Of a stretch of 64,000 bases of DNA, positions 3,336-47,918 are shown one piece after another; within the stretch, counting starts at the first letter, position 1; the number at the start of each line of letters is the position of its first letter. This stretch comes from Naegleria gruberi. Lineage: Eukaryota. Position numbers and translations under genes: made by a program. The stretch is from assembly GCA_000004985.1 (NCBI GenBank), contig GG738869.1. One strand, 5' to 3'. The notes below the pieces were generated by a model that did not search any database, was not told the origin of the DNA, and saw only the letters and a program-made list of their open reading frames with translations.

Positions 3336-4562
3336 ATGCAACATTTACAGTTCGTTCCTTCTCCTGAGGAGATTGGCTTTATCAAATCCATTCCTTCGAT
3401 AACATTTTGCAAAATGCACGGATTGGGAAATGATTATATTTACATTAATTGTTGTAATTTATTACATTCATCAGAAGCTAATGATTTCCGAATCTATCTA
3501 AATCATCAACATAATCTAATTGAATATTGTATTCAAAAGTTGTGTCATCGAACATTTGGTATTGGAGCTGATGGTGTAATTTTCATCACGAATCCAACAC
3601 CAGAATTATTGGAGAATGAAACAAATCATCATCAAATAATTCATTGTCAAATGGAAATGTACAATTCCGATGGATCGAGTGGAGAAATGTGTGGAAATGG
3701 ATTGAGATGTGTTGCTCAGTTTGCCTGTGATCGTTTGGTGGAGAGTGGTAAAATTAAAAAACAAACACTTGAGGGAGGACAACTTGGATATAGAATCAAT
3801 GTACAAAGTAATAGAGGAAAGAGATTGTATCAATGTATTTGTTATGAGGATAGGTCTACATTTTCCAAATCTTCACCTCTGATGGTTGAGATTGAGATGG
3901 GAAATTTACAAACAAAAAGTGTTAATTTCTCATTTGAAAATAATTCAAATTCTATTGAATATGTGGAACAGGAGGAGAATTCAATTAGGAAAATCATTTT
4001 CAAACAATATTTGGATTGTGAAATTCCTCTGTATTGTCTTTTGGTACCTAATCCACATGCCATTTGTTGGGTTAATGAAATTTCTTCACAGAATGAGATT
4101 GATAACACAATGAAAGCAGTCGATTCATTCCCACTTCATACAATTGGTCCAATCATTGAAAATTTGAAACAATTATTTCCAAATAGGACCAATGTAGAAT
4201 TCATTGAAACCATTTCAGCTCAGCATATTGAAACAAATGATTCACCTCTCATCAAATCATTAAAATCCAATTGCATTCTCTCTGCCCGTCAACGTACTTG
4301 GGAGAGAGGTAGTGGAGAAACCAATGCATGTGGGACTGGAGCTTTTGCTGTATCTCAAGTTCTCTACTTGAGAAATGCCATCACCAATTCAATTGGCAAT
4401 ATTCCAAATACTGCCACAGTCAGAATATCCCTCAATGGAGGTGATTTATGGTTCAGATATCACAAATCAAATCCAACTTCACTCGATCATATTCAAGTCA
4501 ACATGATTGGTTCTGTCAATTATTCTCACACAGGCTCCTTCAAATTATCAGATTATCAATAA
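3336..4562 (+). CDS. dapF: Diaminopimelate epimerase (DapF)-family protein, 408 aa, intronless, with host-like AT-rich composition
   Basis: All three DapF signature blocks are present: FCKMHGLGNDYIYIN (FxKMHGxGNDF), YNSDGSSGEMCGNGLRCVAQF (NADGSxxExCGNGxRC, Cys73 equivalent) and ERGSGETNACGTGAFAVSQ (ERGAGETxACGxG, Cys217 equivalent). Relative to the ~275-aa bacterial enzymes it has a 25-aa N-terminal extension and insertions. Confidence 0.75.
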   Translation: MQHLQFVPSPEEIGFIKSIPSITFCKMHGLGNDYIYINCCNLLHSSEANDFRIYLNHQHNLIEYCIQKLCHRTFGIGADGVIFITNPTPELLENETNHHQIIHCQMEMYNSDGSSGEMCGNGLRCVAQFACDRLVESGKIKKQTLEGGQLGYRINVQSNRGKRLYQCICYEDRSTFSKSSPLMVEIEMGNLQTKSVNFSFENNSNSIEYVEQEENSIRKIIFKQYLDCEIPLYCLLVPNPHAICWVNEISSQNEIDNTMKAVDSFPLHTIGPIIENLKQLFPNRTNVEFIETISAQHIETNDSPLIKSLKSNCILSARQRTWERGSGETNACGTGAFAVSQVLYLRNAITNSIGNIPNTATVRISLNGGDLWFRYHKSNPTSLDHIQVNMIGSVNYSHTGSFKLSDYQ

Positions 4563-4880
4563 TAAACAACCTTTAAGCTCCTTCCATACAATTCCAAAAA
4601 CACAAAAGAACATTAATGAAATAGCCTGAAACTTTCCATGTTTAATATTTTTCATTTATTTTCTCTTCAATCTTTTGCCAATTCTTTCGAAGTCTCGGAA
4701 AAAGGTGAAGCTTTAGAAAAAAATATCATCACCAAGTTTGCGGAAGCCTTTTTTCTCTCTTGTTGTGTTAGTACCACCTCTTCTCGACTCGTCGTGTTGC
4801 TATTTTTCTCTGATACGCTATAGAATCTTCTTCTTTGGACACCAATTTAAAAACAACTTGGAATATTTGGATAATAGGAA

Positions 4881-7340
4881 ATGAGCAAAAATTCCGAACA
4901 ACAACAACAGCAAGTGGATCCTCTTGCCGATCCTATTGTCGATACAATTACTAATGAACCTGCTACTGATGAAACTGGCTTTATTACTACACCATTTCTT
5001 GGTATGGAATTTCAAAGTATGCCTACTATGGGATCTTTGCAAGATAAGAGTAAGAAAGGAATCAACATTCATGTAGAAAGTGTTGAAGATGCCATTTCCG
5101 AAGTTAATGCATATGAATTGGACTTTTTAGTTATGGATATTTCTATTCATAAACAAACTCATCAACAACAAAAGAAGAATACGCCAAGTCAACCTACACT
5201 TTTGGATTTAAGACAAATTTGCCACAAGCACACAGTTTCTTCTAGACGTTATTTGTTTAGAACAACAGATTGGTCTCACTGTATGGTCGGAAAGGTAGAT
5301 GAATCTGCTTTCCAAGCTGCTTTTGGAATTTACAACAATAACAATAAGAAATTATTATCTTGTGAAAAGCCATACGAAGTTCCTGCAATTGATGAATATC
5401 TTTGCGGACAGCCATCCCCTGTTAAAAAGACAAAACAGAATAATACTCATGCCATTCCATCAACTGCTGGTACTCTTTCACAAGTTCATTTACAAGCTCA
5501 AGCTGCCAAGTTAATCATTCAACAAGAAATTCAATGGGCTTCTCACTTGTGTATTCCTGCTGTTCTTTTCCCAGAACCTCAAGGAAGAGAAATGACCATT
5601 GCTCTTGCTCAATTCATTAACAAGATTCTTCCAAGTATGGGAAGTACTGCTATTTGGGTTCGTTTCAGTGCTCAAAATTATCATTTGTGGAATTTGATGA
5701 GAACCATGTGCCAAAGCCATAGCTTACTTGTTCCAGTTTTGGATGTGAAAAATAGAGATATTGAAGAATTGGCTCAATCATGTAAGCCAACCCAAGTAGA
5801 AGGTGACAAGAAGAAGAAAAAGACAGCAAATACACCTGAAACTGCCCAACATTATCCACATGAAGCCTTTTGGAATCCTTTCGAAAAGCAAACATTCGGA
5901 TGCGAAAATCCACTTGTCACTGCCTTATCTGTATGGATTGCAGAAAATGTGAGAACAATAATTTTGAACTTGGACAATTTTGCTGCTCCACAAAACAATC
6001 AATCACACTTTTTGAATGAGGGATTGGAACAATTTATCAGAAAATCATTCAAATATGATATTCAATTTATTTTCAGTGCTGGAGCAGATGCCTCTCCAAA
6101 TATGAAGATTTACAAGAGATCAATCATGTCATTATTTGAAAATTGCCCAATCTTGTCTAAGGTTGAAGCATTCAGCAAGTCTTTCCGTGACTTTTTACAA
6201 AGACCATTACAACCACTCATTGATAACTTGGAAAGTCAAACTTATGAAGTTTTCGAACGTGATCCAATCAAATATCTTCTCTATGAACAAGCTGCTGAAA
6301 AGGCTCTTGTTGATTTGTATGAAGCTAAGAAGGCCAAACTTGCCAACGACCCAGAAGCCCTCAAGAATATGCGTGTCATTTCCATGGTTTTGGGTGCTGG
6401 TAGAGGTCCAATTGTTAAGGCAGTTTTAAGAGCTGCCAGAACAGTGAATGTTCCAGTGCTGGTTTATGCTGTAGAGAAGAATCCAAATGCTCTCAGTCAT
6501 TTACTCTACTATAGAAAGACTATTTGGAGTACATTTACTCATGTCAATGGTCGTGATAACTTGGATGTTCCAATAGTGGAAGTCATTCAAAAAGATATGC
6601 GTGTGTGGAATCCACCTGAAAAAGCAGATTTATTAGTTTCTGAATTGTTGGGATCTTTTGGTGATAATGAACTGAGTCCAGAATGTTTAGATGGTGCTCA
6701 ACGTCTCTTAAAGGACAATGGAGAAGGTATTTCAATTCCAGCCAAATACACCTCCTATGCAAGCCCATTGTGTAGTTATAAGGTCTGGACTGAGGTTAAG
6801 AACCTTTGTAAATCTACAACCTTTGAACATGCTGCTTTTGAAACTGGTTATGTATGTTTAGTCCATCGTGGTGTTCCACTAGATAAGCCACAAAGATGTT
6901 TCACTTTTGTCCACCCAAATCCTCAAGTCACAGAAGATCTTAAGGAAAAGGAAATACTTCGTGACCATGAAGATGATAGCTCGACTCTTCATGTTCCACT
7001 CATTAATAATGACAGATACGTCTCCCTTAAATTCAAATCACAACAAAATGCTGTTGTCCATGGTTTGATTGGTTACTTTGATTGCCAATTATATAAGGAT
7101 GTTTGGATGAGTATTCTGCCAGATACTTTCTCAACTGGTATGTTCAGTTGGTTCCCAATATTCTTCCCAATTGAAAACCCAGTTGCTGTCAAGAAGGGTG
7201 AAGAAATTGGTGTTCAAATCTGGAGAAATTGTGATATGGACATTGGCAGAAAAGTCTGGTATGAATGGTGTGTCACAACAAATGGCACATGTTCAAAGCT
7301 CCACAATAGTCAAGGCAAACACTATTACATTTCCCTCTAA
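4881..7340 (+). CDS. PRMT5: Protein arginine N-methyltransferase 5 (PRMT5/Skb1/Hsl7 family), 819 aa, single exon
   Basis: SAM-binding motif MVLGAGRGPIV, then LLVSELLGSFGDNELSPECLDGAQ and a C-terminal beta-barrel region. The N-terminal TIM-barrel-like part has a poly-Q at the start. Confidence 0.9.
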   Translation: MSKNSEQQQQQVDPLADPIVDTITNEPATDETGFITTPFLGMEFQSMPTMGSLQDKSKKGINIHVESVEDAISEVNAYELDFLVMDISIHKQTHQQQKKNTPSQPTLLDLRQICHKHTVSSRRYLFRTTDWSHCMVGKVDESAFQAAFGIYNNNNKKLLSCEKPYEVPAIDEYLCGQPSPVKKTKQNNTHAIPSTAGTLSQVHLQAQAAKLIIQQEIQWASHLCIPAVLFPEPQGREMTIALAQFINKILPSMGSTAIWVRFSAQNYHLWNLMRTMCQSHSLLVPVLDVKNRDIEELAQSCKPTQVEGDKKKKKTANTPETAQHYPHEAFWNPFEKQTFGCENPLVTALSVWIAENVRTIILNLDNFAAPQNNQSHFLNEGLEQFIRKSFKYDIQFIFSAGADASPNMKIYKRSIMSLFENCPILSKVEAFSKSFRDFLQRPLQPLIDNLESQTYEVFERDPIKYLLYEQAAEKALVDLYEAKKAKLANDPEALKNMRVISMVLGAGRGPIVKAVLRAARTVNVPVLVYAVEKNPNALSHLLYYRKTIWSTFTHVNGRDNLDVPIVEVIQKDMRVWNPPEKADLLVSELLGSFGDNELSPECLDGAQRLLKDNGEGISIPAKYTSYASPLCSYKVWTEVKNLCKSTTFEHAAFETGYVCLVHRGVPLDKPQRCFTFVHPNPQVTEDLKEKEILRDHEDDSSTLHVPLINNDRYVSLKFKSQQNAVVHGLIGYFDCQLYKDVWMSILPDTFSTGMFSWFPIFFPIENPVAVKKGEEIGVQIWRNCDMDIGRKVWYEWCVTTNGTCSKLHNSQGKHYYISL

Positions 7341-7631
7341 ATTATTAACTTCCTTCCCTCCTAAACAATCACACACTCCCCAAATTTTTCTTTCCCTTTT
7401 CTTCTCATTTCAATAAATCTAAAGAGTTTCATTTAATGTTTTCATTTTGATTAAGGATTCTTGAAAAGATAACACGAACTCAATTAAGCATTTTACCAAT
7501 TAAATTGAATCAGTTTAAAATCATATCTCTTGAATTTCTTCAAGCCAACACTTGATTCCGCCAACAACATCAAGTAAAACATTAAAAAAAATAATTTCAA
7601 AAATAAATTTTTAAAAAAAATACAACAAAAA

Positions 7632-8318
7632 ATGAGCGCTGTTGTCGAATATCTTAAAGCCCCAGTGCACGACCTCTTTGCCTGGGCTCGTATTAGTTCT
7701 ATGTGGCCTGTTACTTTTGGTTTGGCTTGTTGTGCTGTTGAAATGATGCACGTCGCCGCTGCTAGATATGACTTGGAACGTTACGGTATCTTCTTTAGAC
7801 CAACACCTCGTCAATCCGATGCCATGATTATTGCTGGTACCTTGACAAACAAAATGGCTCCTGCTCTTCGTAAAGTTTGGGATCAAATGGCTGAACCACG
7901 TTACTCTGTTTCTATGGGTTCTTGTGCCAATGGTGGTGGTTATTATCACTTTTCTTATCACGTTGTTAGAGGTGCCGATCAAATTATACCTGTGGACGTT
8001 TACGTTCCTGGATGGTAAGTAGTTTTTGTTGTTGTTATTAACTTGTTTTCACAGCCCTCCAACCGCTGTATGTATTATTGTTTTATTATTAGCAAAATAT
8101 TAATATTGTTTTTTGGATAATTTGGATATGTTAAATATAATGGAAATATATAGGAAGCTTTATTATATGGTGTTTATATGCTTCAAAAGAAGATTAAGAG
8201 AAATCCATACAGAAAGGAAATTATGGAACAAGATTTTAACCAACCTGGTAAATTATATAGAGCTGAAAAGGAATTGAGCGTTTCTGATAATTTGAAACTT
8301 TTGAAACAACAAGAATAA
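7632..8318 (+). CDS. NDUFS7: NADH:ubiquinone oxidoreductase 20-kDa subunit (NDUFS7/PSST/NuoB). Three exons: 7632..8014, 8055..8067 (13-nt microexon) and 8154..8318.
   Basis: Exon 1 reads ...[16 protein letters not shown]...[10 protein letters not shown]...IPVDVYVPG plus TG. The microexon C CCT CCA ACC GCT completes the invariant CPPTA. Exon 3 reads [17 protein letters not shown].... Donors are GTAAGT and GTATGT; acceptors are CACAG and ATATAG. The frame checks throughout. Confidence 0.85.
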
Positions 8319-8411
8319 TTTATATATAAATAGTAACGAAGCGAATGAAAAAACCTCAGTGAGTTTCGACAATAAAGAAAGGGTCACTGTTTAATCATTT
8401 TCTTTAGTATT

Positions 8412-9452: not shown

Positions 9453-9630
9453 TTTTTTTTAATTTGTTTTTTAATTTTTTATCTAAATATGGAAGATTTA
9501 AAAATTGCTTTATTTGGATGGTTGAGTGAAAAATGTTAAAGAATTCATAGAATTTTTGAGAATATTTTAAAGAAATAGTTGCAAAAATTCATCTTCTTTA
9601 TTGAAAATTTTAAAATATTTGTAATTTTAA

Positions 9631-11301
9631 TTAAATGAAAGGAAGATCACTTGTTGGAGATTGAGGAGAATTTGGAGAAGTAGTGTTCATATTCAAAGCA
9701 AGTGTTGATTTGAATTGAAAATGAGTTAGAGAAAGAATATCCGATATTTCCTTTTCGAGATTATCCAAAATTTTTGAATGGAGAATGTCCACAGTTTCGT
9801 ATGAGCCTTGTCTATTGTTATAGAGATCGATTTGGTGGATAATCCATTCCATACTACCAAGATAAACAGATTCTGATTGAATGGAATCATGAATTTCAAA
9901 AATGATTTCGTATTTGATTCGTTCTAGATGGGAAAGTTTCTTTTCAAGTTCATTCGAAACTTGCTGAATATAAATGTCTGCTCCTTTAGCCAAAGACTTT
10001 TCCGCTACAAACTCCTTTGTAATTTCATATAATTTGAGCTGACAATCTATTGAATCTTTACAAAATTCTTTAAAATATTGAATTCTTTCCAAAATTGAAA
10101 ATGGAATTCCAACCTTTGCCTTTTTACAAAATGTTTTAAATTCATCTCGCATTCCAATATCAGCCATCGTATCCTTCAATATATTAGTACTCTCAATCCT
10201 AACTTTCTTCTCATTTCGTATCAACTTTCGTCCCAACATTAAATAAACTAATATTCCAACAGGAATAACAATCACACAAGCCAGACACGACAAGACCAAC
10301 ACTGAAATTCCACTCGCTATGGTAAACTCATCAATTCTATTGCACAACAAGTAAATATCCTCCAATATCTCAAAAAACTTTGTTTCGAATAGTTCCATTT
10401 CATATTTAAATGTTCCATTATAATATTTGACATTGTAAACATTAAATTGTTGATAAAATTCATCCAATTTCGTATAATTTGAAGTATAATTACTCAGCTT
10501 ACAAAACAACCCAATCATTTCTGTCCAATTCTGATAAAGTGGCAGAAACACTTCCTCACCATTCGAATTTCCCATAAACGAATGTTCATAACTGTCAGGT
10601 ATTAAGGAAATCATTTTAAAAACCGATTGATTATAATCAAGCAGTGTATAATTAAGCATATCACAAAAATCTGAATAATTAATCGTTTCCAAACTATTAT
10701 TAAGAGCACTCAATTCTAACATGTCTCGTAAATAGACGAAAGAAGATTTAACTGAATATCGACTAATGAGTAGTTCCTTAATGGGAACAAATTCGGCTAT
10801 TCGTGATGGGACAATGATGGCGAGGGCAATGATGAGTAGAAACAAAATATTGATGAACATGGCCATGGTGGCAAGTAATGGAATTAATCCGAAACGTTTC
10901 GAACAACAATTGATTTGTTTTTTTGATAGTGAACGAGCCAAATCATCAACATGATTGGTTTCGTCCCGAATTTCCTCTATACCTGCTGGTAATTGATCTT
11001 CTATCCTTTCATCCTCAAATAGTATCCTCGGTTGACTTTCGAATACATTTTCATTCTCCACAAAAACACTTCCTTCATCATTTTCATAATTATTTGGTGA
11101 TTGAATTGAAGAATAACTTATTGCCCTCTTCAATTCAAAAGTAGACGGCTTGCTATATGATGGTGGATCATTTAAAAGCATTTTTATGATTCGTAAATAA
11201 GTTATTCGAAAGGAAAGAAGTAGAAATAGAGATAAAAACAACATAAAAAAAAGGCATTTCAGAGTACTTACGAGTAGTAACTTGAAACAAGAAAATGCCA
11301 A
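9631..11301 (-). CDS. Two-pass membrane receptor-like protein (TM1, then a ~180-aa N-glycosylation-rich ectodomain, then TM2, then a ~200-aa cytoplasmic region with an RGS-like segment). The true start is probably an internal Met (e.g. MLLNDPP...).
   Basis: Hydrophobic segments FGLIPLLATMAMFINILFLLIIALAIIV and ASGISVLVLSCLACVIVIPVGILVYLML flank a domain with 8 or more NxS/T sites. The cytoplasmic part has FKTFCKKAKVGIPFSILERIQYFKEF, resembling the RGS core (FxxFLxxEFSEENLxFWxAxEEFK). It is a paralog of the adjacent + strand gene. Confidence 0.45.
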   Translation of the reverse strand: MAFSCFKLLLVSTLKCLFFMLFLSLFLLLSFRITYLRIIKMLLNDPPSYSKPSTFELKRAISYSSIQSPNNYENDEGSVFVENENVFESQPRILFEDERIEDQLPAGIEEIRDETNHVDDLARSLSKKQINCCSKRFGLIPLLATMAMFINILFLLIIALAIIVPSRIAEFVPIKELLISRYSVKSSFVYLRDMLELSALNNSLETINYSDFCDMLNYTLLDYNQSVFKMISLIPDSYEHSFMGNSNGEEVFLPLYQNWTEMIGLFCKLSNYTSNYTKLDEFYQQFNVYNVKYYNGTFKYEMELFETKFFEILEDIYLLCNRIDEFTIASGISVLVLSCLACVIVIPVGILVYLMLGRKLIRNEKKVRIESTNILKDTMADIGMRDEFKTFCKKAKVGIPFSILERIQYFKEFCKDSIDCQLKLYEITKEFVAEKSLAKGADIYIQQVSNELEKKLSHLERIKYEIIFEIHDSIQSESVYLGSMEWIIHQIDLYNNRQGSYETVDILHSKILDNLEKEISDILSLTHFQFKSTLALNMNTTSPNSPQSPTSDLPFI

Positions 11302-12602
11302 TCAATGAAATACGTAAAAACGTCAAGGCCAATCAAGAGACTACTTTCACAACCAAGTCTTCATCTCTTGATTCGAATATGCCAACTAGGCGAAAGATTG
11401 TAAAGTATTTGAGACTAATCTTGTTGATAGGATTCATTATCAACTTTTTATCTTTCATTTCAATTGCTATTATTTCAATATTATCTTTTCAAAGTTCTAA
11501 TTTTTCATTATCAACTGCCATATACAAATATGGAAATGCATATTTGGGTTATGATGAAATGGAATTGGCAGAATTTTTAGTATTACTGACAAGAAAGGAG
11601 AAATTCATTCAAAGATATTATCATTCAAAGAATGAATTGAATAGTTCACTTTCGTATGCTTTTCAAATAATTTCGAATGAAAATTCTTCTTGGATTCCAA
11701 CTCACGAATGGTTCCAAATTGAAAATCACGTAATGGAACTAGTCAAGAGTGGAAACTATTCTCAAGCTTACTCAGTTTCAACTTCTCCAGAACACAAACT
11801 AGCAGATCTTCGATTTATCCAATTTTTAGATTCAGTTCTCGCTCAATTATTCCAAATCAGTGAAACAAAAGAAGCAGAATATATGAAATACACAACTATT
11901 GATCTGGTTGTGGTGATTCTCTGTTTAGGAATTGCCATTCCAATTGTTTTATTAATTTTCATTGGAGTTATTAAATTGGATCGAGATTCAAAGAAGAGAT
12001 TGGAGAAGGCAAGGGCAGTTTCGGTTATTCATTCGATTTCTGATCCGTTTCTGAGACCCAAGTTTAGAAAATGTGTTGAGAATGATGAGTTGGTGTGTTT
12101 TGAATTCTTGGAGAATGTTCAATTGTTTAAGGAGAAGAAGAGATCTATTCATTCGACTATTCAGTCGATTCTAGACGAAATGAAAAAAGAAATGATACCT
12201 AATGATGAAGAGGATGATGCTAGTTCATTGAATGGAATTAGCCCACTAACCCTTTCTCCTGATTTATTCTTACAAATCAAGTCAGAAGATGATCAAATTA
12301 AGGCAATTGACATTTACAATCGTTTTCTCAATCCTAAAGAAAATCAGAAACACATCAAATATAAGAATCATGAAAAGATTTTGGAGGAAATTAATCATCA
12401 GAGTAATCAAGACCTGTTGTCCACTGTATTCGATCAGGTACAAATTGAAATTGCTAAAAAGCTCATCAAATCTCATGAATTATTCTCCAAATCTCAATCT
12501 TTCTCCACTCAAGACATTGAAGACCAATTGCTTTCCTATAGATTTGAATATCTTTCAATATTCAAACCTGAAAAACGAAACAGTCTATTCACATCAAAGT
12601 AA
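11295..12602 (+). CDS. Paralogous two-pass membrane receptor-like protein with an RGS-like cytoplasmic segment, 435 aa. Divergently transcribed from the previous gene.
   Basis: Same architecture: TM1 LRLILLIGFIINFLSFISIAIISIL, an ectodomain with NxS/T sites, TM2 LVVVILCLGIAIPIVLLIFIGVI, then FRKCVENDELVCFEFLENVQLFKEKK (RGS-like). Confidence 0.45.
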   Translation: MPINEIRKNVKANQETTFTTKSSSLDSNMPTRRKIVKYLRLILLIGFIINFLSFISIAIISILSFQSSNFSLSTAIYKYGNAYLGYDEMELAEFLVLLTRKEKFIQRYYHSKNELNSSLSYAFQIISNENSSWIPTHEWFQIENHVMELVKSGNYSQAYSVSTSPEHKLADLRFIQFLDSVLAQLFQISETKEAEYMKYTTIDLVVVILCLGIAIPIVLLIFIGVIKLDRDSKKRLEKARAVSVIHSISDPFLRPKFRKCVENDELVCFEFLENVQLFKEKKRSIHSTIQSILDEMKKEMIPNDEEDDASSLNGISPLTLSPDLFLQIKSEDDQIKAIDIYNRFLNPKENQKHIKYKNHEKILEEINHQSNQDLLSTVFDQVQIEIAKKLIKSHELFSKSQSFSTQDIEDQLLSYRFEYLSIFKPEKRNSLFTSK

Positions 12603-15298: not shown

Positions 15299-15521
15299 TA
15301 ATTATCCATCTAATAAGAGCTATGGATAATTTGTATTTCGAAATATCTGCTACTATTTTCCAATTTAAAATTCTGCAAAGGAAAAAGTAAATATTCGGCA
15401 CTAACCAAACTTGGTATTACTAAAATGGAATCATTTCAAATTCGTCCAATATTTCATATAATTCAACAACTCAATAAATACTCAGCACTCCAAACATTCA
15501 AAGTTTTTCATATAAAAAAAG

Positions 15522-31497: not shown

Positions 31498-31564
31498 CTC
31501 TTGAAATATTCGACAACAATACTCCAACTCTTTTCACAATGTGAATAAATATACTTGAAAATTC

Positions 31565-38100: not shown

Positions 38101-38383
38101 ACCTCCCAAAAAGAAACAGAAAACAACCCGTAGTAATAGAGGTATTCGAGAGAAGTCTTCTGAAAATGAATCAGAAAGACCACACAAAAAACCAACAACT
38201 CATAAGAAAGAACTCAAGTTTGAAAAAAGTCAAGTTTCAAATCATTTACCTCCACCAACAACAAGACAGGACACAATGAAACAGCAACCAACAACAGGTT
38301 TTTGGCCCAGCCATATGCAGAACACTCCTCTTCAATTGTTTCATCCAGTGGAAGCTCCTCTACAAATCCTTGTTCAGCACTAA
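35195..38383 (+). CDS. SNF2-family chromatin-remodelling ATPase, 1062 aa, with an acidic N-terminus
   Basis: Helicase motifs DYQLEAINFL...LAHEMGLGKT (I), DEAHKLKS (II), LLTGTPMQNSPEELWSLLNLL (III), and helicase-C LSTKISQGINLTAANHVIIYDSDFNPFNDSQAAARAHRIGQTKKVFVYRLVT. Confidence 0.85.
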   Translation: MDNYFEMSSHIVTLNTQEVRERNKNRNDKPKEIEQRNPFYDQGQSLIRSSLMKLQQEEINTYEFKYFSNKPKKVFSTSFSISLRNDILRFSGEDTLFTPTFLGKRMTEDESSDESSEEGTKIIIEVGSSSDEEEEFAFNETEVDGRPIMEAMDYSSTSGSDEEESEEEGTSESDEETISRTSRKRTLDERVTYPTYDRDSFKFTPIQTSEELYQELTLKDYQLEAINFLFNNYCENRPSCLAHEMGLGKTIISLSTLNIMYKKLGVFGPFLIVVPLITLPNWEREAKKWLPQFKCHTAWGTAVNGTKAKALEDTSKLYSESVSEQTPLLVLTTYEFLKETTVTRKKWACVIFDEAHKLKSQKTQARKNAEKLKKEYFFLLTGTPMQNSPEELWSLLNLLDPRAFPSYKLFEEKYGELETETAITNLKTAIAPYLIRKTKAQVLHAEMPPKEEILIEIELSSIQKSVYRAIVERKVNFFRKQFASKQDLTYIVNSLRYCCNHPCLISGMEEYLRDEQKRDDKGILIYSSSKMVVVHKLLKKFRDANEKTLILSQFLEMLDVLESYLQSEQISYVRIDGSCPSEERQRYIDKFQTDSECRVFLLSTKISQGINLTAANHVIIYDSDFNPFNDSQAAARAHRIGQTKKVFVYRLVTKDSYEKYIISRASKKLGREKLVLAESDKSDEDITAEEMQRMIKYGVYSLFLNKEQNINKDNELMNTDIDKILERSSKIGVEGEEDGSLVDVINRVTGNDKSIEKQTSNEVIKSVYFVPVEEVSDVALDDPNFWDKTFPDYCDIYTLESRLENVKPFEAHEFESYFKKLVHVATESINRRQKVSEETEKLSRVVEEDKRGLPTKNQLHTFLLKLNSQRYNHHYHSLQKDHLDQVQKWIDQLETKTLRNKKVWASSSDNIKKQEKRSSSNVNDHLDSDAEFDGSDSDDGDNTDDEFECDQNELVRESESLHNINIKTAPPKKKQKTTRSNRGIREKSSENESERPHKKPTTHKKELKFEKSQVSNHLPPPTTRQDTMKQQPTTGFWPSHMQNTPLQLFHPVEAPLQILVQH

Positions 38384-39897
38384 GTGCTAATAATCAACAA
38401 CCAGCTCAAATAGTAAATGCTCAAAGCCCAGCCACGAACCAAACAAATAGACAAAGGAGAACAAACAAGAAACCAACACAAACTCAACCAGTTCCACAAC
38501 AAGCAAGCTCTTCGAACACACCAACAAACCAAACACATGGTTACCCCTTACTGCCACCAACAAGTAATCAACCTTCAATAATGTTTGGTCATCCAAATTA
38601 TAGGGAACAACCACCAAGTCAACCATTGGTCTCACTAACAACTCTTTCACCTGAAATACTTAGTCGTCTATCTCAAGCACTACAAACTGTTCCGAAGCCT
38701 ATTCTACAACCACAATCAACCAATAGTTACCAAAAACTTGTAGCTCAACAACAACAGCCAACTTACCTAAAATCCACAACACCAAATCCTCCAAAAAATG
38801 TTCCAACACTTGGTCAGCAACAAATGGGCATACCACAACCAACAACAACAAAATTAATGGATCATTTAGCACATACTCAAATGCCTCCAACTCAAAAACC
38901 TCCCCAACCAGTGGCAAGCTCCTCTACAATCAGAGCTAATAATCAACAACCAGCCCAAACAGCACGTCTATCAAGTGTGTCATCCTCATTTAATCACCAT
39001 AGTACCACCCAATCACAAAATCAAATACATAATCCAACACCACAACCATTTTCGACCGATTTCGATTTGGGTGATCGTAGAACAAATCAGCCAACACATG
39101 GTCGTCCAGTACCATTCAATTATCAACCACCAATGAATCAGAATGCTAGTTATCCAACAACAGAACAATCTACAAATTTGTTCCGTGACGTTAGACAGAA
39201 TCCTGCTTCATTCCAACAAATGGTACAAACAATGAATTTGAACACTATTAAGGCATTAGGTGTACAATATTTAAGATACCTTTCAGCCTTAAAAAGTAAC
39301 TATTGGGGTAATGACAAGCAACAACTGGTTTCGAATTGTATCAATCTGTTGACCATCATCAAGACGCAATGCAACAAGATTGTTTCACAACAGCAGCAGC
39401 AACAGCAACAACAAAACAATCCATACAATAATCCTTTCCATACAAATCCATTTCCTCCTCAAAATGTCAACAATATTCCAACAACTACAAATACTTCTAC
39501 CTATCAAGCATATTACACACAAAGTACGCAAAGGGACGGCACAAGAACAATGACCTCTACCACTACTACAACCTTCCAAAATACACCCCTCCATAATCTA
39601 TCAATGATACCTAACAATCCAAATACTGCACTTCAAACACAACACCAACAGCACGGCCGTGTAGGCATTGAATACTATAGGTCAATAATTTCACAAGCCA
39701 ATAATCAAACTGCTCAATCTTCAACAATGACCCGAGTTCAAACCACCTCTTCACCAATCAACAATAACACAACAACACTCCAACTACCTCCCCAACCAAC
39801 AACGTCGACATCTTCCTCTACAGTAGTACAACCGTCCTTGGTTGACTTAAATGATAATACAGACTATATCAATAACTGGTTCAACTTTGAACATTAA
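38302..39897 (+). CDS. Gln/Pro/Thr/Asn-rich low-complexity ORF (531 aa). It overlaps the 3' end of the SNF2 ORF in another frame. It is either a separate gene or a frameshifted C-terminal tail.
   Basis: Open frame with the repeated motif ANNQQPAQ and a poly-Q (CAG/CAA)n tract. It has no independent ATG near the overlap (the track start is a TTG). Confidence 0.35.
   Translation: MAQPYAEHSSSIVSSSGSSSTNPCSALSANNQQPAQIVNAQSPATNQTNRQRRTNKKPTQTQPVPQQASSSNTPTNQTHGYPLLPPTSNQPSIMFGHPNYREQPPSQPLVSLTTLSPEILSRLSQALQTVPKPILQPQSTNSYQKLVAQQQQPTYLKSTTPNPPKNVPTLGQQQMGIPQPTTTKLMDHLAHTQMPPTQKPPQPVASSSTIRANNQQPAQTARLSSVSSSFNHHSTTQSQNQIHNPTPQPFSTDFDLGDRRTNQPTHGRPVPFNYQPPMNQNASYPTTEQSTNLFRDVRQNPASFQQMVQTMNLNTIKALGVQYLRYLSALKSNYWGNDKQQLVSNCINLLTIIKTQCNKIVSQQQQQQQQQNNPYNNPFHTNPFPPQNVNNIPTTTNTSTYQAYYTQSTQRDGTRTMTSTTTTTFQNTPLHNLSMIPNNPNTALQTQHQQHGRVGIEYYRSIISQANNQTAQSSTMTRVQTTSSPINNNTTTLQLPPQPTTSTSSSTVVQPSLVDLNDNTDYINNWFNFEH
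39388..39417 (+). repeat. (CAG/CAA)n tract encoding poly-Gln
   Basis: caacagcagcagcaacagcaacaacaa is directly visible inside the Q/P-rich ORF. Confidence 0.9.
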
Positions 39898-40566
39898 TAC
39901 TGGGATAAAGAATATTTTGAGTATTGTTTATAATATGTAATATAATCGTTATTTGCTCATTGGTAAGTTTGGGAATAGTACTTTCATCTGAAGAGATATC
40001 ACTTGCTTTCTTCAATTCATGCTTTACTATGATGTTCTCCTTCCTGTGTGTTTTATATAAAGGATTCTTTATCTTAGTAAATAAGCACAACTAAATATTA
40101 TGCAGAAGTTGAAAAACAAGCCGAGAATTTGAAAGTGCTCAATTATCAAGTCACAATATTTTTCTTCAACACTATACGAATGTTTCCCGTAATGGACATT
40201 TGCAAGCCATTGATAGTACTTTTTCCAAGAACATTTCTACATCGAATGAAACATATCTTACTCAGTAACGGCCCTTAGTTGACTTTTCAAATGATAACAC
40301 AAAATCAACTTGAACAGTATTTGTGTGAAATAGGTACTCATGGCTTCTAATTCAACTCCTTGGTTCTGTCCGTAAATAAGGAATTCAAAGATGAACAATT
40401 AGATTGTCTACTCTTGACACATAACGTATAATTAGAACTTGAATTAGAACCTGATCAACAATATTATTAAAAAAATTCCTAGAGTAAATCTTCTCCGTGA
40501 TAGCAAATACATCATCAAAAAACAACAACACGTGTTCTTTACTCTCTGAAACAAACTGTACATAAA

Positions 40567-43197
40567 ATGTCTTACTTCAAGCCTTTGGAAATTAAGAGTA
40601 TTTTGACTAAAAAGACTGACCAATTGGATCTTGTCAGACCATTAACAAAATTTATTTCGATACAATATGGAGAACATATTTTGAAAGATTATGAAACTCC
40701 AATCTCTGCCCTTCAACAACGTAGAAATGAAATGAGAAATTTACAAGAGAAGAGTGAAGGATCAAGGGATTTATGTATTAGGTAAGGTTATTGTTCCGAT
40801 GACAATATTTATTAATATTATTATTATTTCGTGATTAGATATGCTGTTGATATGATGCAAGTTGCTAGCCATTTCCCAATTGATACAGGTGTTCAACGTA
40901 TACAAGTACAATTCTCTTGGTATGACAGTCTTAGTCGTGCTAGAACAACACAAGGAAATTCAAATTTTGAAATTGCAAACGTTTTATTTAATAGTGCTGT
41001 TTTATCTCATCAACTTGGTACATCACAAAATAGAAATTCCGAAGAGGGTTGTTTGGAAGCAGCCAAACACTTCCAAAGTGCTGCCGGAATGTTTACCTAT
41101 ATTCAAAAGAAGGTGTGTCCAAATATTGTAGAAAAACTTAATCAAGATTTAACAAACGAAGCTTTGGAAGCATTAGTTTTAATTTGCTTAGCCAATGCTC
41201 AACAATGTATTTGCGAAAAAGCTCACAAGAAGAATATGAAAGGAGCAATTTTATCAAAGTTATATATGGGTGCTAGTCATAGTTACAAGCTTGCTGCTGA
41301 AGTTATTGATGCCTCCAACACTACAAAGAATCTCTTTGACAAGACATGGAAGTCCTATCTCAGATTTTGTCAACACTACTTTGAAGCTTTGGCATCCTAT
41401 CTTATTGCTTTAGATCTTCATGAGGAAATGTGCATTGGCAAGGAAATTACAAGAATTATCCATGCTCAAAATTGTCTTGTTGATTGTTCCGAGCAAAGAG
41501 TGACTGGTAATTTAAAGCTTGTTATGGATGAATTGGATCAAGTACTCAACAATTTGTTAAAGACTGCTCAACATGAAAATTCAAAGATTTATCACGATCG
41601 TGTTCCTGAATTGAAGGATTTGGAACTTGTTGAAGCCAAGACAATGTCAAAGATTCAAGAAGTTAATGAAATTTCCGATTTATTGAAGGAAAAGATTGCT
41701 GATCCATTCTTTAACCTCTTCCCTATTCCAGTTATGGAAGCCAAGCAAAAGTATGAAGAAAATATCAAGAAGAGAATGAATGAAGTTTTTGTTCAAGCTC
41801 GTCAACATCGTGAATATATTAGAAATGAACTTTCAAAGATGGGACTCCCTGGATCAATTTTGATGGTTGACCAAAAGTCAGGATTCCCAGATGAGGTTCA
41901 CCACAAGATCTCCAAGATCAACTTGGAAGGAGGTATCAATAGATTATTTGAATTGAAGCAAACATTGGATGAAATGTCTGGTGAAACCAAGAATCAACTC
42001 GATTCCATCACTAAAAAGCTCGATGAAGAACAAAAGGAAGATGATGAATGTCGTATGCAATACGGAGCTAACAGATGGCCAAGATTGGAAAGCGCCAAGC
42101 TTACTAGCAATTTGAGAAAGCAAATAACTGACTATCAACAAAAGCTGAAGATTGCCATCAACTCTGATAGTTTGATTGATAAGAAGATTTCTGAAAACTC
42201 TGAAGGATTCAAATGGTTCTCTCTCGATAGTAAGACTTTGAATGACAAGATGCCACAAAGTCTCTCTCAAATCATGGAACCAAGCTCACAATTTGGCAAG
42301 TCATATTCTGACCTCAAGTTATATTTGGCACAACTTGACGATATTCTTGAACAAGAACTTGCCATTGAGTCCAACATTTCCAATTCATTCAAATTACAAG
42401 ATAAGGAGATTGAACTCAAACTTTTAGCTTCTCAAAGTAATTTGGAATCTTCTGTACAACAATTATTACAAGAACAAGAAGCCAAGTTTAAGGAACTTTT
42501 GGTTGATTTCCCACAAAAAGAAAATACCTATCTCCAATCCATTCAAGAAGCAAACAGAACTTTTGAACAACACAAGTCTCAAAATTCTATTCAAAGTCAA
42601 AGAGAACAAATTTTACAATTCATTTACAATGCTATCAACAAGTATAATGAAATTAGTGCCAATTTGCAAGAAGGTATCAATTTTTATACAACAATGCAAG
42701 AAATTACCAAGAAACTTGCTAATCGTATTGATGACTTTGTTTTTGCCAGAAGAACAGAAAAACAAGATATTATGGTCAATATTCAACAACAAATTAGTGG
42801 TGTTACAATTGATCCACAATATAATTATTCCTCTTCACAACAACCAAAACCAGTCCATGGTTCAAACACTCCTGTATATTCATCATCCACTATAACTTCT
42901 CAACCAACAACCACCAATACAACCAGCTCATCGCAATACCAACCTCAATATCAATACCAACCAAACGCTTATCAACAACCACCACAACAATATCAACCAC
43001 AAGTTGCCTACCAACAACAACCTCAATACCAACAAGCACAACCATATATGCAAGGAAGTGGTAGCTTTACTCAACCTCAATTCCAATACGTACAACAACA
43101 ACAACAACAACAACCTTACTACAATCCAAACGCTCAATACCAACAACAACAACAACCTTCGTATCAGAATCCTAATCAACCCCAATACAGAAGATAA
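40567..43197 (+). CDS. BRO1-domain protein (ALIX/Bro1 homolog) with a YQ/P-rich C-terminus. Two exons: 40567..40781 and 40839..43197; intron 40782..40838 with GTAAGG donor and GATTAG acceptor.
   Basis: The splice joins ...SRDLCI(R) to YAVDMMQVASHFPID.... BRO1 features: FSWYDSL, NVLFNSAVLSHQLG, coiled-coil V-domain-like middle. C-terminal QYQPQYQYQPNAYQQPPQQYQ repeats. Confidence 0.8.
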
Positions 43198-43316
43198 ATA
43201 AGCTCGTACCATATTAATATCAATTAAACCCATTAAACCGCACCAGTGTAGTCTCAATTAGCTCAATATTTTAATATCGTAATACATAATTACTAGCAAG
43301 AGAGAATAAATATTTT

Positions 43317-44444
43317 GTGGGTGCCGTGACCATTCCAAGACACGATACAATATCATCTCCTTTTTTCAGATTTCTGTCTCCTTCCAAAAAAGTCTTTGTT
43401 ATTGCACTTGAAGTACCAAGCTACTTTTTTCTAGCTAATTGCTTTTCCATTTACATCACAACAAAAAAACAACATAACATTCTCTTTATGATTGTGCCAA
43501 CCTCACCTCGTTCGCAACCATCATTGATTCTTGGTAAAAGAGGAGAATCCCTCCTCTCCTCCAACTCTGTGCACCAAAACACTGATCACCAAACAAATAA
43601 TGCCTTCAAACAATCCCTTCTTGATAAGAAACATCATTACCTACCACCACAACAACAAGTGTTTTTATGTTATGAGAGAATGCCTTCATCACTGCCTGTT
43701 TTTCAACAATTAGATCAAAATTCAACTTGGCCTACAATAGAAAACAATTCTTGTAATTGTCCTTCACCACCAGCTATTATACCTCCTCCTAAGAATACAT
43801 ATTATAATAACAACCCTAATAGAAACTCATCGATACCAACCACTACAAATAATCATCACCACTCAATAACCAATTGTTATGCTGCCCAGCAAATCCCCTC
43901 TTTTGGTAATATGGTTCACCATATTGTAGAAAAGGGATTTCACCACCACAACCCAAATAACAAACGAACAAGGGATGATAATCAAGATGATGCCAATAGC
44001 ACAGATGATAACCGACAATACCAATCAGATATTGTGCCAATGACCAATACTCAAAAGAGAAAGATTGATAATTCCTCCTCGACACTTAAATCTGAACCAA
44101 CAGGATATCAACCTTTGGAAGATTCTACTCTTCTCTTTTTGATGGATCTTGTATGTAAAGTCGTTGAAAAGAAGGAACCTGTACATTCACCCAATTTCAA
44201 TTTGTCCTCGGATCTGATATCGTGTAGTGTAAGCAGTAATAATAGTCATTGCTCAAGTCCACAAACAACACGATCAGTTAAATCCTCTCCAATACCTATT
44301 GCCAATGATGAGTATTCAAATCATGCTAGTAACAATGATGCTGTATCTCATCAGTCATCATCTTTATCATCTTTACAAGAACAGAACAGAAGCAAAAAGC
44401 CACACCGAACAAGTGTCTTGACAATAAAAGAGTTGTTGAACTAA
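43317..44444 (+). CDS. Hypothetical S/N/P-rich protein
   Basis: 375-aa ORF of low complexity. Possible internal start MIVPTSPRS. Confidence 0.3.
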   Translation: MGAVTIPRHDTISSPFFRFLSPSKKVFVIALEVPSYFFLANCFSIYITTKKQHNILFMIVPTSPRSQPSLILGKRGESLLSSNSVHQNTDHQTNNAFKQSLLDKKHHYLPPQQQVFLCYERMPSSLPVFQQLDQNSTWPTIENNSCNCPSPPAIIPPPKNTYYNNNPNRNSSIPTTTNNHHHSITNCYAAQQIPSFGNMVHHIVEKGFHHHNPNNKRTRDDNQDDANSTDDNRQYQSDIVPMTNTQKRKIDNSSSTLKSEPTGYQPLEDSTLLFLMDLVCKVVEKKEPVHSPNFNLSSDLISCSVSSNNSHCSSPQTTRSVKSSPIPIANDEYSNHASNNDAVSHQSSSLSSLQEQNRSKKPHRTSVLTIKELLN

Positions 44445-44675
44445 GATTCTTAAAACCTTTCTGATAATCTCTTCCATACTCATGTGGTGATGTTTGATAA
44501 CTTTTTCCTAATACTCATAAGAGATTTGTCTCTTTCCAATGTGCTTTAGAACTATTCTTGATTGAGGCTTTTGAATTTTTCCACTGAAAGAAAGAGATTA
44601 TACCTTTGCACTGCACCTTTTTAATATCTCAACTCAATTCATCATCATTTAAAAGAATAAAACAGTAAAATAAAG

Positions 44676-45332: not shown

Positions 45333-45420
45333 CAACTTGCAATAATAAACAACACACTGATTAATAGATTAGTATAATATTTCTTTTTATTTCGAAGAAA
45401 TGGAATTATTGGAATCTGGG

Positions 45421-46723: not shown

Positions 46724-47015
46724 AGAGTTTTTGAAGAAAATGGAATTTTAATGGAAAGATTAGAAATTCCCGCCAAGAGAATTCAAACGATGAAGGATCG
46801 TGGGTTCGAGACCCATTGGTGGTATCAAATTTTTAGTAACTAATAATTAATTATATCAAAATTAATGAAACAATTTGCAATACTTATTCCAATATTGGAA
46901 TCAATGTATTGAATATATTTCAATATCTTTTTACAAAGACCTATGAGGTCAGTTGAATATTATCTTTCGAATGTCTCTCTCAATGATTATGATAACTAAA
47001 ATTCATCCAAAAAAA

Positions 47016-47918
47016 ATGTCAAAAGTCATCTTCTTGATTTTACTCTTGTGTTTCATCGGTGTCATTAACGCTTCTGGTTCTATTTTCAACCCAACCGATG
47101 CAGAAATTGATCAAATTATCGAAATGTCAGACTCTGAATTTTCTTCTGGCACCAAATTCGCATCCCTCACAACTTTAAATGTTCGTGAAGGTCCTTGCAC
47201 TGATAAGAAAATTGTTACCACACTCGGATCTGATGTTGTTGTTACCTATACTGGTAAATCCATCACTGCCTGTGGTCATACTTGGTTCTCAGTTTCTGGA
47301 ACTTTTGGACAAGGTTATGCCTCATCAACCTATTTGAGACAAGTTGTTAATCCTGGAGCTGGATCTGCTTTTAGAAATTCTGCTGCTCAATGGGCTGCTT
47401 CAAAGGCTGGAAGTTGTTATTCACAAGCCAATAGATATGGAAATCCATGTTATGATTGTTCTAGTTTGGTAGGTTGTTGTGGAGGTTGAATGGTGATTGG
47501 TGGAATAATCTAATTTTTTTATTGATTGATTGATATATTTGAATGTTTCTTGCGCCTATATTAGGTTCATCTTGCTTATAAACAATCTGGTAAGCCTAAT
47601 GTTCCACTCACTACCAGATTGTATCCTAATAGTGCTGTTAAGGAAATTAGTAAGAATGAAATTGCTGCTGGTGATATTTTGTGGAGAGAAGTAAGTAGTA
47701 AGAGTGAAAACAATTGTTCTGAACTCTAGCTCAATTATTATTAATATTAATATTTATATATTTATATTGAATGAAAATTGAAATTTTTGATTAATTAGGG
47801 ACATGTTGGCATGTATCTTGGCAATGGACAAGTGGTTAATGCTGAAAATGAAAAGAATGGTGTTAAAATCAGAACTTTTGCCAATTTCAGATATACCAAG
47901 ATTTATAGAGTTCTTTAA
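47016..47918 (+). CDS. Secreted bacterial-type cell-wall hydrolase: signal peptide + SH3b-like domain + NlpC/P60 cysteine peptidase. Three exons: 47016..47468, 47565..47690 and 47799..47918; introns 96 and 108 nt with GTAGGT/GTAAGT donors and TATTAG/AATTAG acceptors.
   Basis: Signal peptide MSKVIFLILLLCFIGVINASG. SH3b-like TLNVREGPCTDKKIVTTLGSDVVVTYTG...WFSVS. NlpC/P60 blocks AAQWAASKAGSCYSQANRYGNPCYDCSSLVHLAYKQSG (catalytic Cys in DCSxLV), GDILWREGHVGMYLGNGQVVNA (catalytic His). All splice junctions are in frame. Confidence 0.8.

Follow-up and report, generated by a model that had tools for sequence, protein, structure and literature searches.

A bacterial-type diaminopimelate epimerase gene and an NlpC/P60 gene 42.5 kb apart in the Naegleria gruberi genome

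A 64,000-nucleotide stretch of the Naegleria gruberi genome (the window) contains two genes of bacterial type, one for diaminopimelate epimerase (DapF) and one for an NlpC/P60 protein. Both enzymes are predicted to work on substrates that contain diaminopimelate (DAP). Do the two genes belong to one route that turns the cell walls of bacterial prey into lysine? A sequence-only reading of the window had proposed such a connection. Our best explanation, which we consider probable, is that the two genes are independent, that each has its canonical job, and that their spacing is coincidental.

The first gene is intronless and was identified from Pfam and NCBIfam profiles, an alignment, and an AF2 model:

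3336-4562, + strand: DapF gene, 408 amino acids

The open reading frame begins at 3336, as the sequence-only reading had it. Its product matches DAP_epimerase (Pfam PF01678) with 115.8 bits in two stretches or repeats (cut-off 34.7) and, across the whole protein, the NCBIfam equivalog for DapF (TIGR00652) with 148.4 bits (cut-off 114.65). UniRef has an N. gruberi protein, labelled diaminopimelate epimerase, with 100% identity to it, and the best matches from a sequence search of the PDB were all DapF. In alignments with 2OTN and 3EJX, Cys119 (in the motif MCGNG) and Cys332 (NACGTG) match the catalytic motifs. The catalytic cysteines, one per domain, are Cys73 and Cys217 in the numbering of H. 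influenzae DapF. In an alignment of 11 heterolobosean and bacterial sequences, both cysteines are invariant, and so are the ligand-site residues N32, G120/N121/G122, N239/P240/H241, N286/V287/E288/F289, E323/R324, and G333/T334. Orthologs are present in N. fowleri, N. lovaniensis, and Willaertia (the N. fowleri gene has a gap of ~113 nt, which we interpreted as an intron), and all of the catalytic and ligand-binding residues are kept across four heterolobosean species.

The AF2 model (pTM 0.81) has the pseudo-symmetric, two-domain fold of DapF. When we compared it to the PDB with Foldseek, the top 26 matches were DapF or the DapF-like O-ureidoserine racemase, with target-normalised TM scores of 0.61-0.78. 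The two-domain fold, the catalytic cysteines, and the ligand residues are common to the Naegleria protein and to bacterial and plant DapF (B. anthracis 2OTN, Arabidopsis 3EJX, and H. influenzae 1BWZ), but identity over the structural alignments is only 22-27%, and the Naegleria protein is ~130 amino acids longer than bacterial DapF, with lineage-specific loop insertions that are low-pLDDT segments in the model. The N-terminus has no recognisable targeting signal. By its scores, both of its catalytic cysteines, and its modelled fold, the product is an intact DapF, and it is predicted to have epimerase activity.

The second gene ends at 47918, which agrees with the sequence-only reading, and is interrupted by two introns:

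47016-47468, + strand: exon 1, with the signal peptide, the SH3 domain (amino acids 53-107), and the first part of the catalytic domain with Cys148
47469-47564, + strand: intron 1, 96 nt, GT..AG, GC 0.31 (the open reading frame otherwise meets a stop at 47489)
47565-47690, + strand: exon 2, the central part of the catalytic domain
47691-47798, + strand: intron 2, 108 nt, GT..AG, GC 0.19
47799-47918, + strand: exon 3, with His195 (GHVGMY), Asn207 (VNAEN), and the stop codon (47916-47918)

Splicing rebuilds DCSSLV/HLAYKQ at the first junction and DILWRE/GHVGMY at the second, and both are contiguous in the ortholog from Willaertia, which is intronless. The spliced product of 232 amino acids matches NLPC_P60 (PF00877; MEROPS C40) with 46.2 bits (cut-off 23) and SH3_3 with 30.3 bits (cut-off 27); a weaker match to Amidase_5 (32.8 bits) overlaps NLPC_P60. 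The full-length product was not found in the protein database. By inspection, the hydrophobic N-terminus is a signal peptide, MSKVIFLILLLCFIGVINA, which ends before SGS. In-frame ATGs at 46974-46989 might extend exon 1 at its N-terminal end; in the Willaertia ortholog, the signal peptide lies right at the start. A signal peptide followed by an SH3b domain and a C-terminal NlpC/P60 domain is the common architecture of the proteins from Willaertia and from uncultured relatives. Scans for bacterial promoters and terminators around the gene gave nothing above shuffled sequences, as expected for a eukaryotic gene.

Among relatives, Cys148 (in the DCSS motif) is invariant and His195 is nearly invariant. 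Asn207 occupies the third position of the triad, where relatives have His or another polar residue. The AF2 model has a pLDDT of 83 overall and above 88 across the catalytic domain, and its top Foldseek matches are NlpC_A1 and NlpC_A2 from Trichomonas vaginalis (6bim and 6biq, E ~5e-11); bacterial NlpC/P60 peptidoglycan hydrolases come next. Single-domain NlpC/P60 structures match the papain-like alpha+beta fold with target-normalised TM scores of 0.6-0.8 and rmsd of 2.2-3.6 A. Profile scores, catalytic residues, and folds bear out the identities that the sequence-only reading gave to both proteins, and neither gene is a spurious hit. As for specificity, members of the NlpC/P60 superfamily also work as amidases and as LD- or DD-peptidases, and the nearest sequence relatives of the Naegleria protein also match the Amidase_5 and ELLD models. 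Judging only by its structural neighbors, the enzyme most likely cuts the gamma-D-Glu-diamino acid bond.

The introns, the host-like GC and GC3, the conserved gene order thioredoxin-DapF-PRMT5-NuoB, and the orthologs in Willaertia show that both genes, although of bacterial type, have long resided in the nuclear genome of N. gruberi as eukaryotic genes. Because the DapF and NlpC/P60 families are overwhelmingly bacterial, one might explain one or both genes by contamination with bacteria, or by recent co-transfer on one fragment. We consider the probability of this to be negligible: the NlpC/P60 gene has two spliceosomal introns, both genes have the same GC and GC3 as neighboring host genes, eukaryotic genes surround them on one contig, and syntenic orthologs are present in N. 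fowleri (which keeps the order thioredoxin-DapF-PRMT5-NuoB) and in Willaertia. Furthermore, among the matches listed, the two proteins are only 29-42% identical to any prokaryotic protein. Introns, composition, synteny, and low prokaryotic identity together rule out both contamination and co-transfer on a single fragment, and the claim that bacterial-type genes reside in a eukaryotic genome stands.

The nearest prokaryotic relatives of the two genes differ, which is not what a common donor or a co-transfer would give. For DapF, the best bacterial matches listed are 29-34% identical and taxonomically scattered, and the prokaryotic relatives are chromosomal housekeeping genes from scattered phyla. 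The NlpC/P60 gene is related to prokaryotic lysins from conjugative elements or phage tails: these relatives have TraG-like or Phage_lysozyme2 genes as neighbors, and the best PHROG matches are phage tail lysins. The sequence-only reading had named unrelated phylogenetic origins as grounds for giving up the connection, and housekeeping genes on one side and mobile-element or phage lysins on the other are what we found.

How close are the two genes? We measured 42.5 kb between them (about 43 kb had been claimed), and ~25 unrelated eukaryotic open reading frames lie in between, including GDI, PRMT5, NuoB, JmjC, NHL, nucleoside hydrolase, F-box/LRR, C2, AlkB-like, SNF2, and ALIX. There is no NlpC/P60 gene within 10 kb of DapF in N. 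fowleri. In Willaertia magna, DapF is subtelomeric (~5 kb from the telomere) and adjoins ALIX, and the NlpC/P60 gene is on another contig. More precisely, contig 149 carries DapF and ALIX 2.5-6 kb from its start, and contig 143 carries NlpC/P60 144 bp from its start. We considered that these contigs might abut, which would place NlpC/P60, ALIX, and DapF within ~7 kb and one inversion away from the arrangement in N. gruberi; this was rejected because contig 149 begins at a telomere, with ~360 nt of the repeat (CCCAAA)n. In an uncultured relative (locus L006), the NlpC/P60 gene is beside HECT, adaptin, and COQ7, and DapF is not found there.

In Willaertia, ALIX adjoins DapF, and in N. gruberi it is 3.8 kb upstream of NlpC/P60, so DapF, ALIX, and NlpC/P60 may once have been in a common neighborhood. 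A homology search with ALIX found it in Willaertia, Acrasis, and Naegleria-like contigs; N. fowleri was not among the matches listed. One Naegleria-like contig of 7 kb ends 0.7 kb after ALIX, and neither DapF nor NlpC/P60 is within 10 kb of ALIX in Acrasis.

Overall, DapF and NlpC/P60 are neither closely spaced without unrelated genes between them nor kept together in relatives, and the step from a shared window to a functional connection is unsupported, given the ~25 intervening open reading frames, the different relatives, and the separate locations in Willaertia. Their proximity looks like coincidence, because each window has ~35 genes and hundreds of windows were screened for any pair that could be related, and because the linkage is not kept in Willaertia. 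For a given pair of single-copy genes, the prior chance of lying within 45 kb is ~0.2%, if we take the genome to be ~41 Mb, so the argument for coincidence lies in how broad the screen was, and it is no proof.

Does the chemistry require both enzymes? The DAP of peptidoglycan is already in the meso form, which is the isomer that LysA acts on, and DapF is needed only for LL-DAP. LysA alone would therefore convert wall DAP, without DapF. Also, a DL-endopeptidase yields DAP-D-Ala(-D-Ala) peptides and no free DAP; the steps from these to usable DAP also call for an LD-carboxypeptidase and a lysosomal exporter. These points weigh against a single salvage route in which NlpC/P60 frees DAP peptides, DapF and a putative LysA turn them into lysine, and the shared window reflects the coupling. 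Such a route would make sense of the DAP-containing substrates predicted for both enzymes, and the secreted architecture of the NlpC/P60 protein suits the digestion of prey. Kinetoplastids are documented or proposed to use bacterial DAP via DapF and LysA, the alpha-aminoadipate enzymes discussed below make a non-biosynthetic role for DapF plausible, and ALIX connects the neighborhoods of the two genes across species. Given the intervening open reading frames, the different prokaryotic relatives, the linkage that is not conserved, and the extra steps, we nevertheless consider the single route to be quite unlikely. A further argument is that N. fowleri and N. lovaniensis have DapF and that no NlpC/P60 gene from either was among the best 120 homology matches listed; it is a weak one, because the database also lacks the N. 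gruberi gene. (No N. gruberi paralog of NlpC/P60 was among these 120 matches either.) As for the proposed harvest of lysine from bacterial DAP, it remains plausible for Naegleria by analogy with a sister lineage, the Euglenozoa; the roles assigned to the two enzymes fare worse, as the endopeptidase would yield no free DAP and meso-DAP would not need the epimerase.

If DapF does not act on wall DAP, it might make lysine from scratch. The de novo DAP pathway for lysine is found in plants, algae, and oomycetes, and DapF is required exactly where LL-DAP is an intermediate, so the need for an epimerase fits de novo synthesis no less well than it fits salvage. A complete pathway of this kind would be unrelated to the walls of prey, and NlpC/P60 would be a separate digestive enzyme. 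For N. gruberi, Fulton et al. 1984 reportedly gave a minimal defined medium with 11 amino acids but no lysine, and a cell that grows on it must have some de novo route to lysine. The conservation of the catalytic and ligand-binding residues in four heterolobosean species also fits this explanation, as does the acquisition of the whole DAP pathway by horizontal gene transfer (HGT) in another phagotroph, Monosiga (PMC4046809).

However, Naegleria appears to have an alternative, the alpha-aminoadipate route. Homoaconitase and homoisocitrate dehydrogenase are listed for N. fowleri, and an ortholog of homoaconitase is given for N. gruberi (PMC8296547 supplement; homoaconitase scores 615 bits against fungal LYS4). 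These enzymes argue against a need for DapF in de novo lysine synthesis and leave a salvage role plausible, and the alpha-aminoadipate route would itself account for growth without lysine. In addition, the related kinetoplastids retain only DapF and LysA. Our search of the literature found no link between Naegleria and the dihydrodipicolinate enzymes, and nothing specific to Naegleria on the DAP pathway, lysA, lysine biosynthesis, or NlpC/P60. We consider it unlikely that DapF belongs to a complete de novo pathway with NlpC/P60 as an unrelated enzyme. If we ask only about DapF, we favor a short branch from DAP to lysine, as in kinetoplastids, because of the apparent alpha-aminoadipate route: we give this branch a little less than an even chance, and a full de novo DAP pathway appears somewhat unlikely. 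A more elaborate proposal is that Naegleria combines alpha-aminoadipate lysine synthesis with a dedicated path from stem peptides to lysine (the secreted SH3b-NlpC/P60 protein would open prey walls, and cytosolic DapF would make LL-DAP usable alongside meso-DAP via a putative LysA) and that the proximities to ALIX are remnants of an ancestral DapF-ALIX-NlpC/P60 cluster; this we find very doubtful.

We return to the explanation that we prefer, two independent genes with canonical jobs. The data show the gene structures, domains, catalytic residues, folds, orthologs, and synteny, and that linkage is not conserved; for Naegleria, we infer where the proteins are located, which bond is cut, that a LysA exists, and that prey-wall material flows into lysine at all. 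The signal peptide would export the NlpC/P60 protein into the phagolysosome or the medium, where its SH3b domain would dock onto peptidoglycan and its papain-like Cys148-His195-Asn207 triad would cut the stem peptide, with the gamma-D-Glu-diamino acid bond as the most likely target. By analogy with the T. vaginalis enzymes, this cutting would aid in killing and digesting bacterial prey. DapF would be a cytosolic two-cysteine epimerase (Cys119/Cys332) that interconverts LL-DAP and meso-DAP, and the only sensible sink for its product would be lysine, via LysA. Any contact that both enzymes share with prey-derived DAP would be a matter of general bacterivory and not of a co-located or co-inherited module.

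DapF and NlpC/P60 are each an ordinary example of the borrowed bacterial genes that are known from bacteria-eating protists, and the value of the finding is modest. Lysine via DapF and LysA in kinetoplastids and the NlpC/P60 hydrolases that Trichomonas and Trepomonas direct at prey walls were already described. The analysis contributes a corrected NlpC/P60 gene model, for which the protein database has no full product, the definition of a small eukaryote-only clade of SH3b-NlpC/P60 proteins, and the question of what DapF does in an organism with enzymes of the alpha-aminoadipate pathway. If the two genes were coupled, then Naegleria would be a tractable free-living model for how a phagotroph converts wall peptides to an essential amino acid, and would test why several lineages of Discoba retain DapF without peptidoglycan synthesis. 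To our knowledge, humans lack the enzymes of DAP metabolism, so a functional DapF in the lineage of N. fowleri might have minor appeal as a selective target, but only if it is essential. This is unlikely, given growth without added lysine or DAP.

Among known systems, the best structural matches to the Naegleria NlpC/P60 protein are NlpC_A1 and NlpC_A2 from T. vaginalis (6BIM and 6BIQ), which are DL-endopeptidases that are induced by bacteria (Pinheiro et al. 2018, PMC6299479); the demonstrated role against bacteria is theirs. The common features are lateral acquisition, a signal peptide, SH3 domain(s), a C-terminal NlpC/P60 domain, and a papain-like triad. However, the proteins are only ~24% identical, and our sequence search of the PDB missed the T. 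vaginalis entries. Also, the Naegleria protein has one SH3b domain instead of two, and Asn takes the place of His as the third residue of its triad. Its nearest prokaryotic relatives, mobile-element or phage-type lysins, point to a separate acquisition. Trepomonas sp. PC1, a free-living diplomonad, has ~18 NlpC/P60 genes for the degradation of prey walls (PMC4967989). It too is a bacterivorous protist whose bacterial NlpC/P60 genes are read as serving prey-wall digestion, but no paralog from N. gruberi was among the matches listed, and the lineages and acquisitions differ.

Anaerobic ciliates have laterally acquired NamZ, MurQ, AnmK, and LysA for peptidoglycan catabolism (PMC13198582). Here, too, a bacterivorous protist gained bacterial genes for wall breakdown, and lysA is in the set. 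But the ciliate set acts on the amino-sugar part of the wall, includes neither DapF nor NlpC/P60, and is from another lineage.

The closest parallel to the Naegleria DapF is salvage by DapF and LysA in kinetoplastids (Herpetomonas, Leptomonas, Neobodo, and Crithidia; PMC3846528; PMC7052976 supplement): in both cases, a protist from Discoba that does not make peptidoglycan has a bacterial-type DapF, and for kinetoplastids, the proposed source of the DAP is the bacterial wall. In Crithidia, DAP substitutes for lysine in growth media, and the trypanosomatid DapF and LysA derive from HGT (PMC3846528). Similarly, some euglenozoans are described as deriving lysine from the DAP of bacterial cell walls (PMC7052976 supplement). 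The DapF of H. muscarum groups with Bacteroidetes (PMC3846528), whereas the matches listed for Naegleria DapF do not resolve a donor. And kinetoplastids are auxotrophic for lysine, whereas Naegleria appears to have the enzymes of the alpha-aminoadipate route.

Two genes of bacterial type, a diaminopimelate epimerase (DapF) and an NlpC/P60 peptidase, had been recognized by the sequence-only reading, and we confirmed both of them in the window (GC 0.34; AT-rich, eukaryotic sequence):

3336-4562, + strand: DapF open reading frame of 408 amino acids (Pfam, NCBIfam, and PDB matches)
46953-47918, + strand: SH3b-NlpC/P60 gene with three exons (splice reconstruction and domain matches)

The DapF ORF is 100% identical over 408 amino acids to NCBI's "predicted protein [Naegleria gruberi]", which UniRef names diaminopimelate epimerase. 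Pfam DAP_epimerase matches it in two stretches (115.8 bits), and it exceeds the cut-off of the NCBIfam equivalog TIGR00652 (148.4 bits; cut-off 114.65). In a PDB sequence search, the significant matches were all DapF, plus one DapF-like racemase. We aligned the protein with the orthologs from four relatives (N. lovaniensis, 50% identity; N. fowleri, 46%; an uncultured relative, 44%; Willaertia magna, 42%) and with six other DapF proteins, four of which are named as bacterial. The catalytic cysteines Cys119 (MCGNG) and Cys332 (ACGTG) and the ligand-binding motifs (N32, GNG, NPH, NVEF, ER, and GT) are invariant throughout. The AlphaFold model recovers the two-domain fold (pTM 0.81), and in the PDB its 26 top-ranking matches are either DapF or O-ureidoserine racemase; the roughly 130 extra residues are loop insertions modeled with low confidence. 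Inspection of the N-terminus found no obvious targeting signal, so the enzyme is probably cytosolic. The N. fowleri protein is longer (496 amino acids, with extra low-complexity insertions); its gene (10001-11832 of that locus) contains an apparent intron, a gap of about 113 nt with no equivalent in the N. gruberi gene, and is directly followed by a tRNA-Pro(TGG) gene.

For NlpC/P60, the open reading frame that begins near 46953 ends in a stop at 47489, shortly 3' of the DCSSLV motif. When two GT..AG introns (47469-47564 and 47691-47798) are spliced out, the product has 232 amino acids and ends at 47918, with a predicted hydrophobic signal peptide, a bacterial SH3 domain (30.3 bits), and an NlpC/P60 domain (46.2 bits). 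The motifs at the splice junctions are contiguous in the intronless Willaertia ortholog, which confirms the splice sites. Among the matches listed, the only identical database product comes from a Logan assembly (P0121) and is a 168-amino-acid exon 1 read-through, so that database's N. gruberi protein set apparently lacks the full-length protein. This corrected gene model is one of the two most useful by-products of our analysis, the other being the question of DapF's role. Of the catalytic triad, Cys148 never varies in the alignment, His195 almost never does, and Asn207 sits at the position of the third residue. The AlphaFold model (pLDDT 83) most resembles T. vaginalis NlpC_A1/A2, followed by bacterial peptidoglycan hydrolases including YkfC, MepS, RipA/B, LytE, and SagA; bond specificity is predicted solely from these structural neighbors. 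A tRNA-Leu(CAA) gene lies 113 nt 3' of the stop codon (48031-48111), and upstream of the gene is a fragment resembling a tRNA T-arm and 3' end (46800-46825; GTGGGTTCGAGACCCATTGGTGGTA), which neither ARAGORN nor Rfam called.

Both are resident eukaryotic genes. Bacterial contamination is ruled out by the introns of the NlpC/P60 gene, by the putative intron of the N. fowleri DapF gene, by GC and GC3 values of both genes that agree with those of adjacent host genes, and by the synteny of the thioredoxin-DapF-PRMT5-NuoB block between N. gruberi and N. fowleri. In N. fowleri, PRMT5 and NuoB flank an amino-acid transporter gene (Aa_trans; 15357-17420 of the DapF locus) that would not fit into the corresponding N. 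gruberi interval (7340-7632).

The sequence-only reading took the shared window to imply a functional connection, which we found to be unsupported: four lines of evidence speak against a physical or evolutionary link between the two genes. First, about 25 ORFs of at least 150 amino acids separate them (including PRMT5, complex I NuoB, JmjC/cupin, NHL, nucleoside hydrolase, Zn-cluster, F-box/LRR, and C2 proteins, an AlkB-like oxygenase, an SNF2 helicase, and ALIX), and we saw none related to the cell wall or lysine. Second, their prokaryotic relatives differ, contrary to a common origin. Among the matches listed, bacterial DapF proteins are 29-34% identical and scattered across phyla, versus 31-42% identity over the catalytic half for the nearest NlpC/P60 relatives, which adjoin TraG-like or Phage_lysozyme2 genes; in PHROG, the best-matching families are phage tail lysins. 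Third, the linkage is not conserved. N. fowleri has no NlpC/P60 gene within 10 kb of DapF, DapF was not found near NlpC/P60 in the locus of an uncultured relative, and in Willaertia, a telomere repeat lies 5 kb from DapF, which is head-to-head with ALIX; NlpC/P60 is on a separate contig. Fourth, DapF is present in both N. fowleri and N. lovaniensis, although no NlpC/P60 from either is among the matches listed; this last counts for little, since the N. gruberi gene also lacks annotation.

The N. gruberi ALIX/BRO1 gene (40573-43197) lies 36 kb from DapF and precedes NlpC/P60 by 3.8 kb, while in Willaertia it is the immediate head-to-head neighbor of DapF (2527-6180 of contig JBEGDK010000149.1). 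One inversion within an old linkage block could account for both arrangements. An inversion predicts that the ends of the two Willaertia contigs abut, which we rejected because one end is telomeric: JBEGDK010000149.1 starts (1-370) with a (CCCAAA)n telomere repeat of about 360 nt and continues into extremely AT-rich sequence for about 2 kb, which makes ALIX and DapF subtelomeric in Willaertia. An M20-family peptidase gene (1032-3014) lies just upstream of ALIX in a Naegleria-like Logan contig (SRR29240419); the N. gruberi window has no counterpart at that position. DapE, ArgE, and dipeptidases belong to the M20 family. Within 38000-44000 of the window, two stretches (38-40 kb and 42-44 kb) combine a strongly negative GC skew (-0.32 to -0.35) with a positive AT skew. 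They coincide with glutamine/asparagine-rich low-complexity coding sequence, namely the C-terminal tail of ALIX and the ORFs at 38302-39897 and 43317-44444.

The motifs of the N. gruberi NlpC/P60 protein (CYSQ..R.GNPCYDCSSLV ... GDILW..GHVGMY.GN.QVVNAEN ... YR) are shared by a small eukaryote-only clade, whose contigs carry eukaryotic neighbors (HECT, adaptin, COQ7, MBOAT, and WD40 genes). The NlpC/P60 gene of an uncultured relative (254-975 of its locus; 58% identity) aligns to the N. gruberi protein in two blocks; a gap of about 60 nt, which we read as an intron, divides the SH3b region from the catalytic domain. Its position is unlike that of either N. gruberi intron, and the Willaertia gene has none, which suggests that introns were gained independently after the gene was acquired. 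A 3.2-kb contig (GCA_016850925.1) holds two tandem SH3b-NlpC/P60 genes (374-1799) of this clade that encode alanine-rich products. In a JGI metagenome contig with eukaryotic neighbors, the product encoded at 5569-6774 (apparently mis-annotated as "ribosomal protein S16") has an N-terminal array of ~30-amino-acid repeats (KKIKIDDIFNWVGKGKQVYD...) instead of SH3b, fused to the same NlpC/P60 catalytic domain.

The biochemical link between the two genes is only a loose one. By established pathway chemistry, LysA decarboxylates meso-DAP, which is the form in Gram-negative and Bacillus-type walls, so that DAP can be salvaged without DapF. DapF comes into play only for LL-DAP, either as a de novo intermediate or from walls of the LL-DAP type. 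The product of a DL-endopeptidase is DAP-D-Ala(-D-Ala) rather than free DAP, and salvage from there would also need an LD-carboxypeptidase and lysosomal export. The chemistry does not need both genes.

For N. fowleri, published tables include a mitochondrial homoaconitase (615 bits to fungal LYS4), for which an N. gruberi ortholog is given, and a homoisocitrate dehydrogenase (PMC8296547 supplementary tables). Together, these enzymes point to an alpha-aminoadipate route to lysine in Naegleria, which raises the question of what DapF does in such an organism. A minimal medium for N. gruberi from Fulton et al. in 1984 is said to lack lysine. Given these enzymes, this medium, and the known precedents, DapF seems somewhat more likely to belong to a short salvage branch than to a complete de novo DAP pathway. 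As for the proposed salvage of bacterial walls, it is plausible, and not without precedent, that the genes take part in handling wall material; the argument from co-location does not hold.

Both belong to already known kinds of gene. Kinetoplastids are described as making lysine from bacterial DAP with horizontally acquired DapF and LysA, and in Crithidia DAP can replace lysine (PMC3846528; PMC7052976 supplement). Laterally acquired NlpC/P60 enzymes have been demonstrated to attack bacteria in Trichomonas (PMC6299479) and are inferred to do so in Trepomonas (PMC4967989), and anaerobic ciliates are reported to have laterally transferred sets of peptidoglycan-catabolic genes, lysA among them (PMC13198582).
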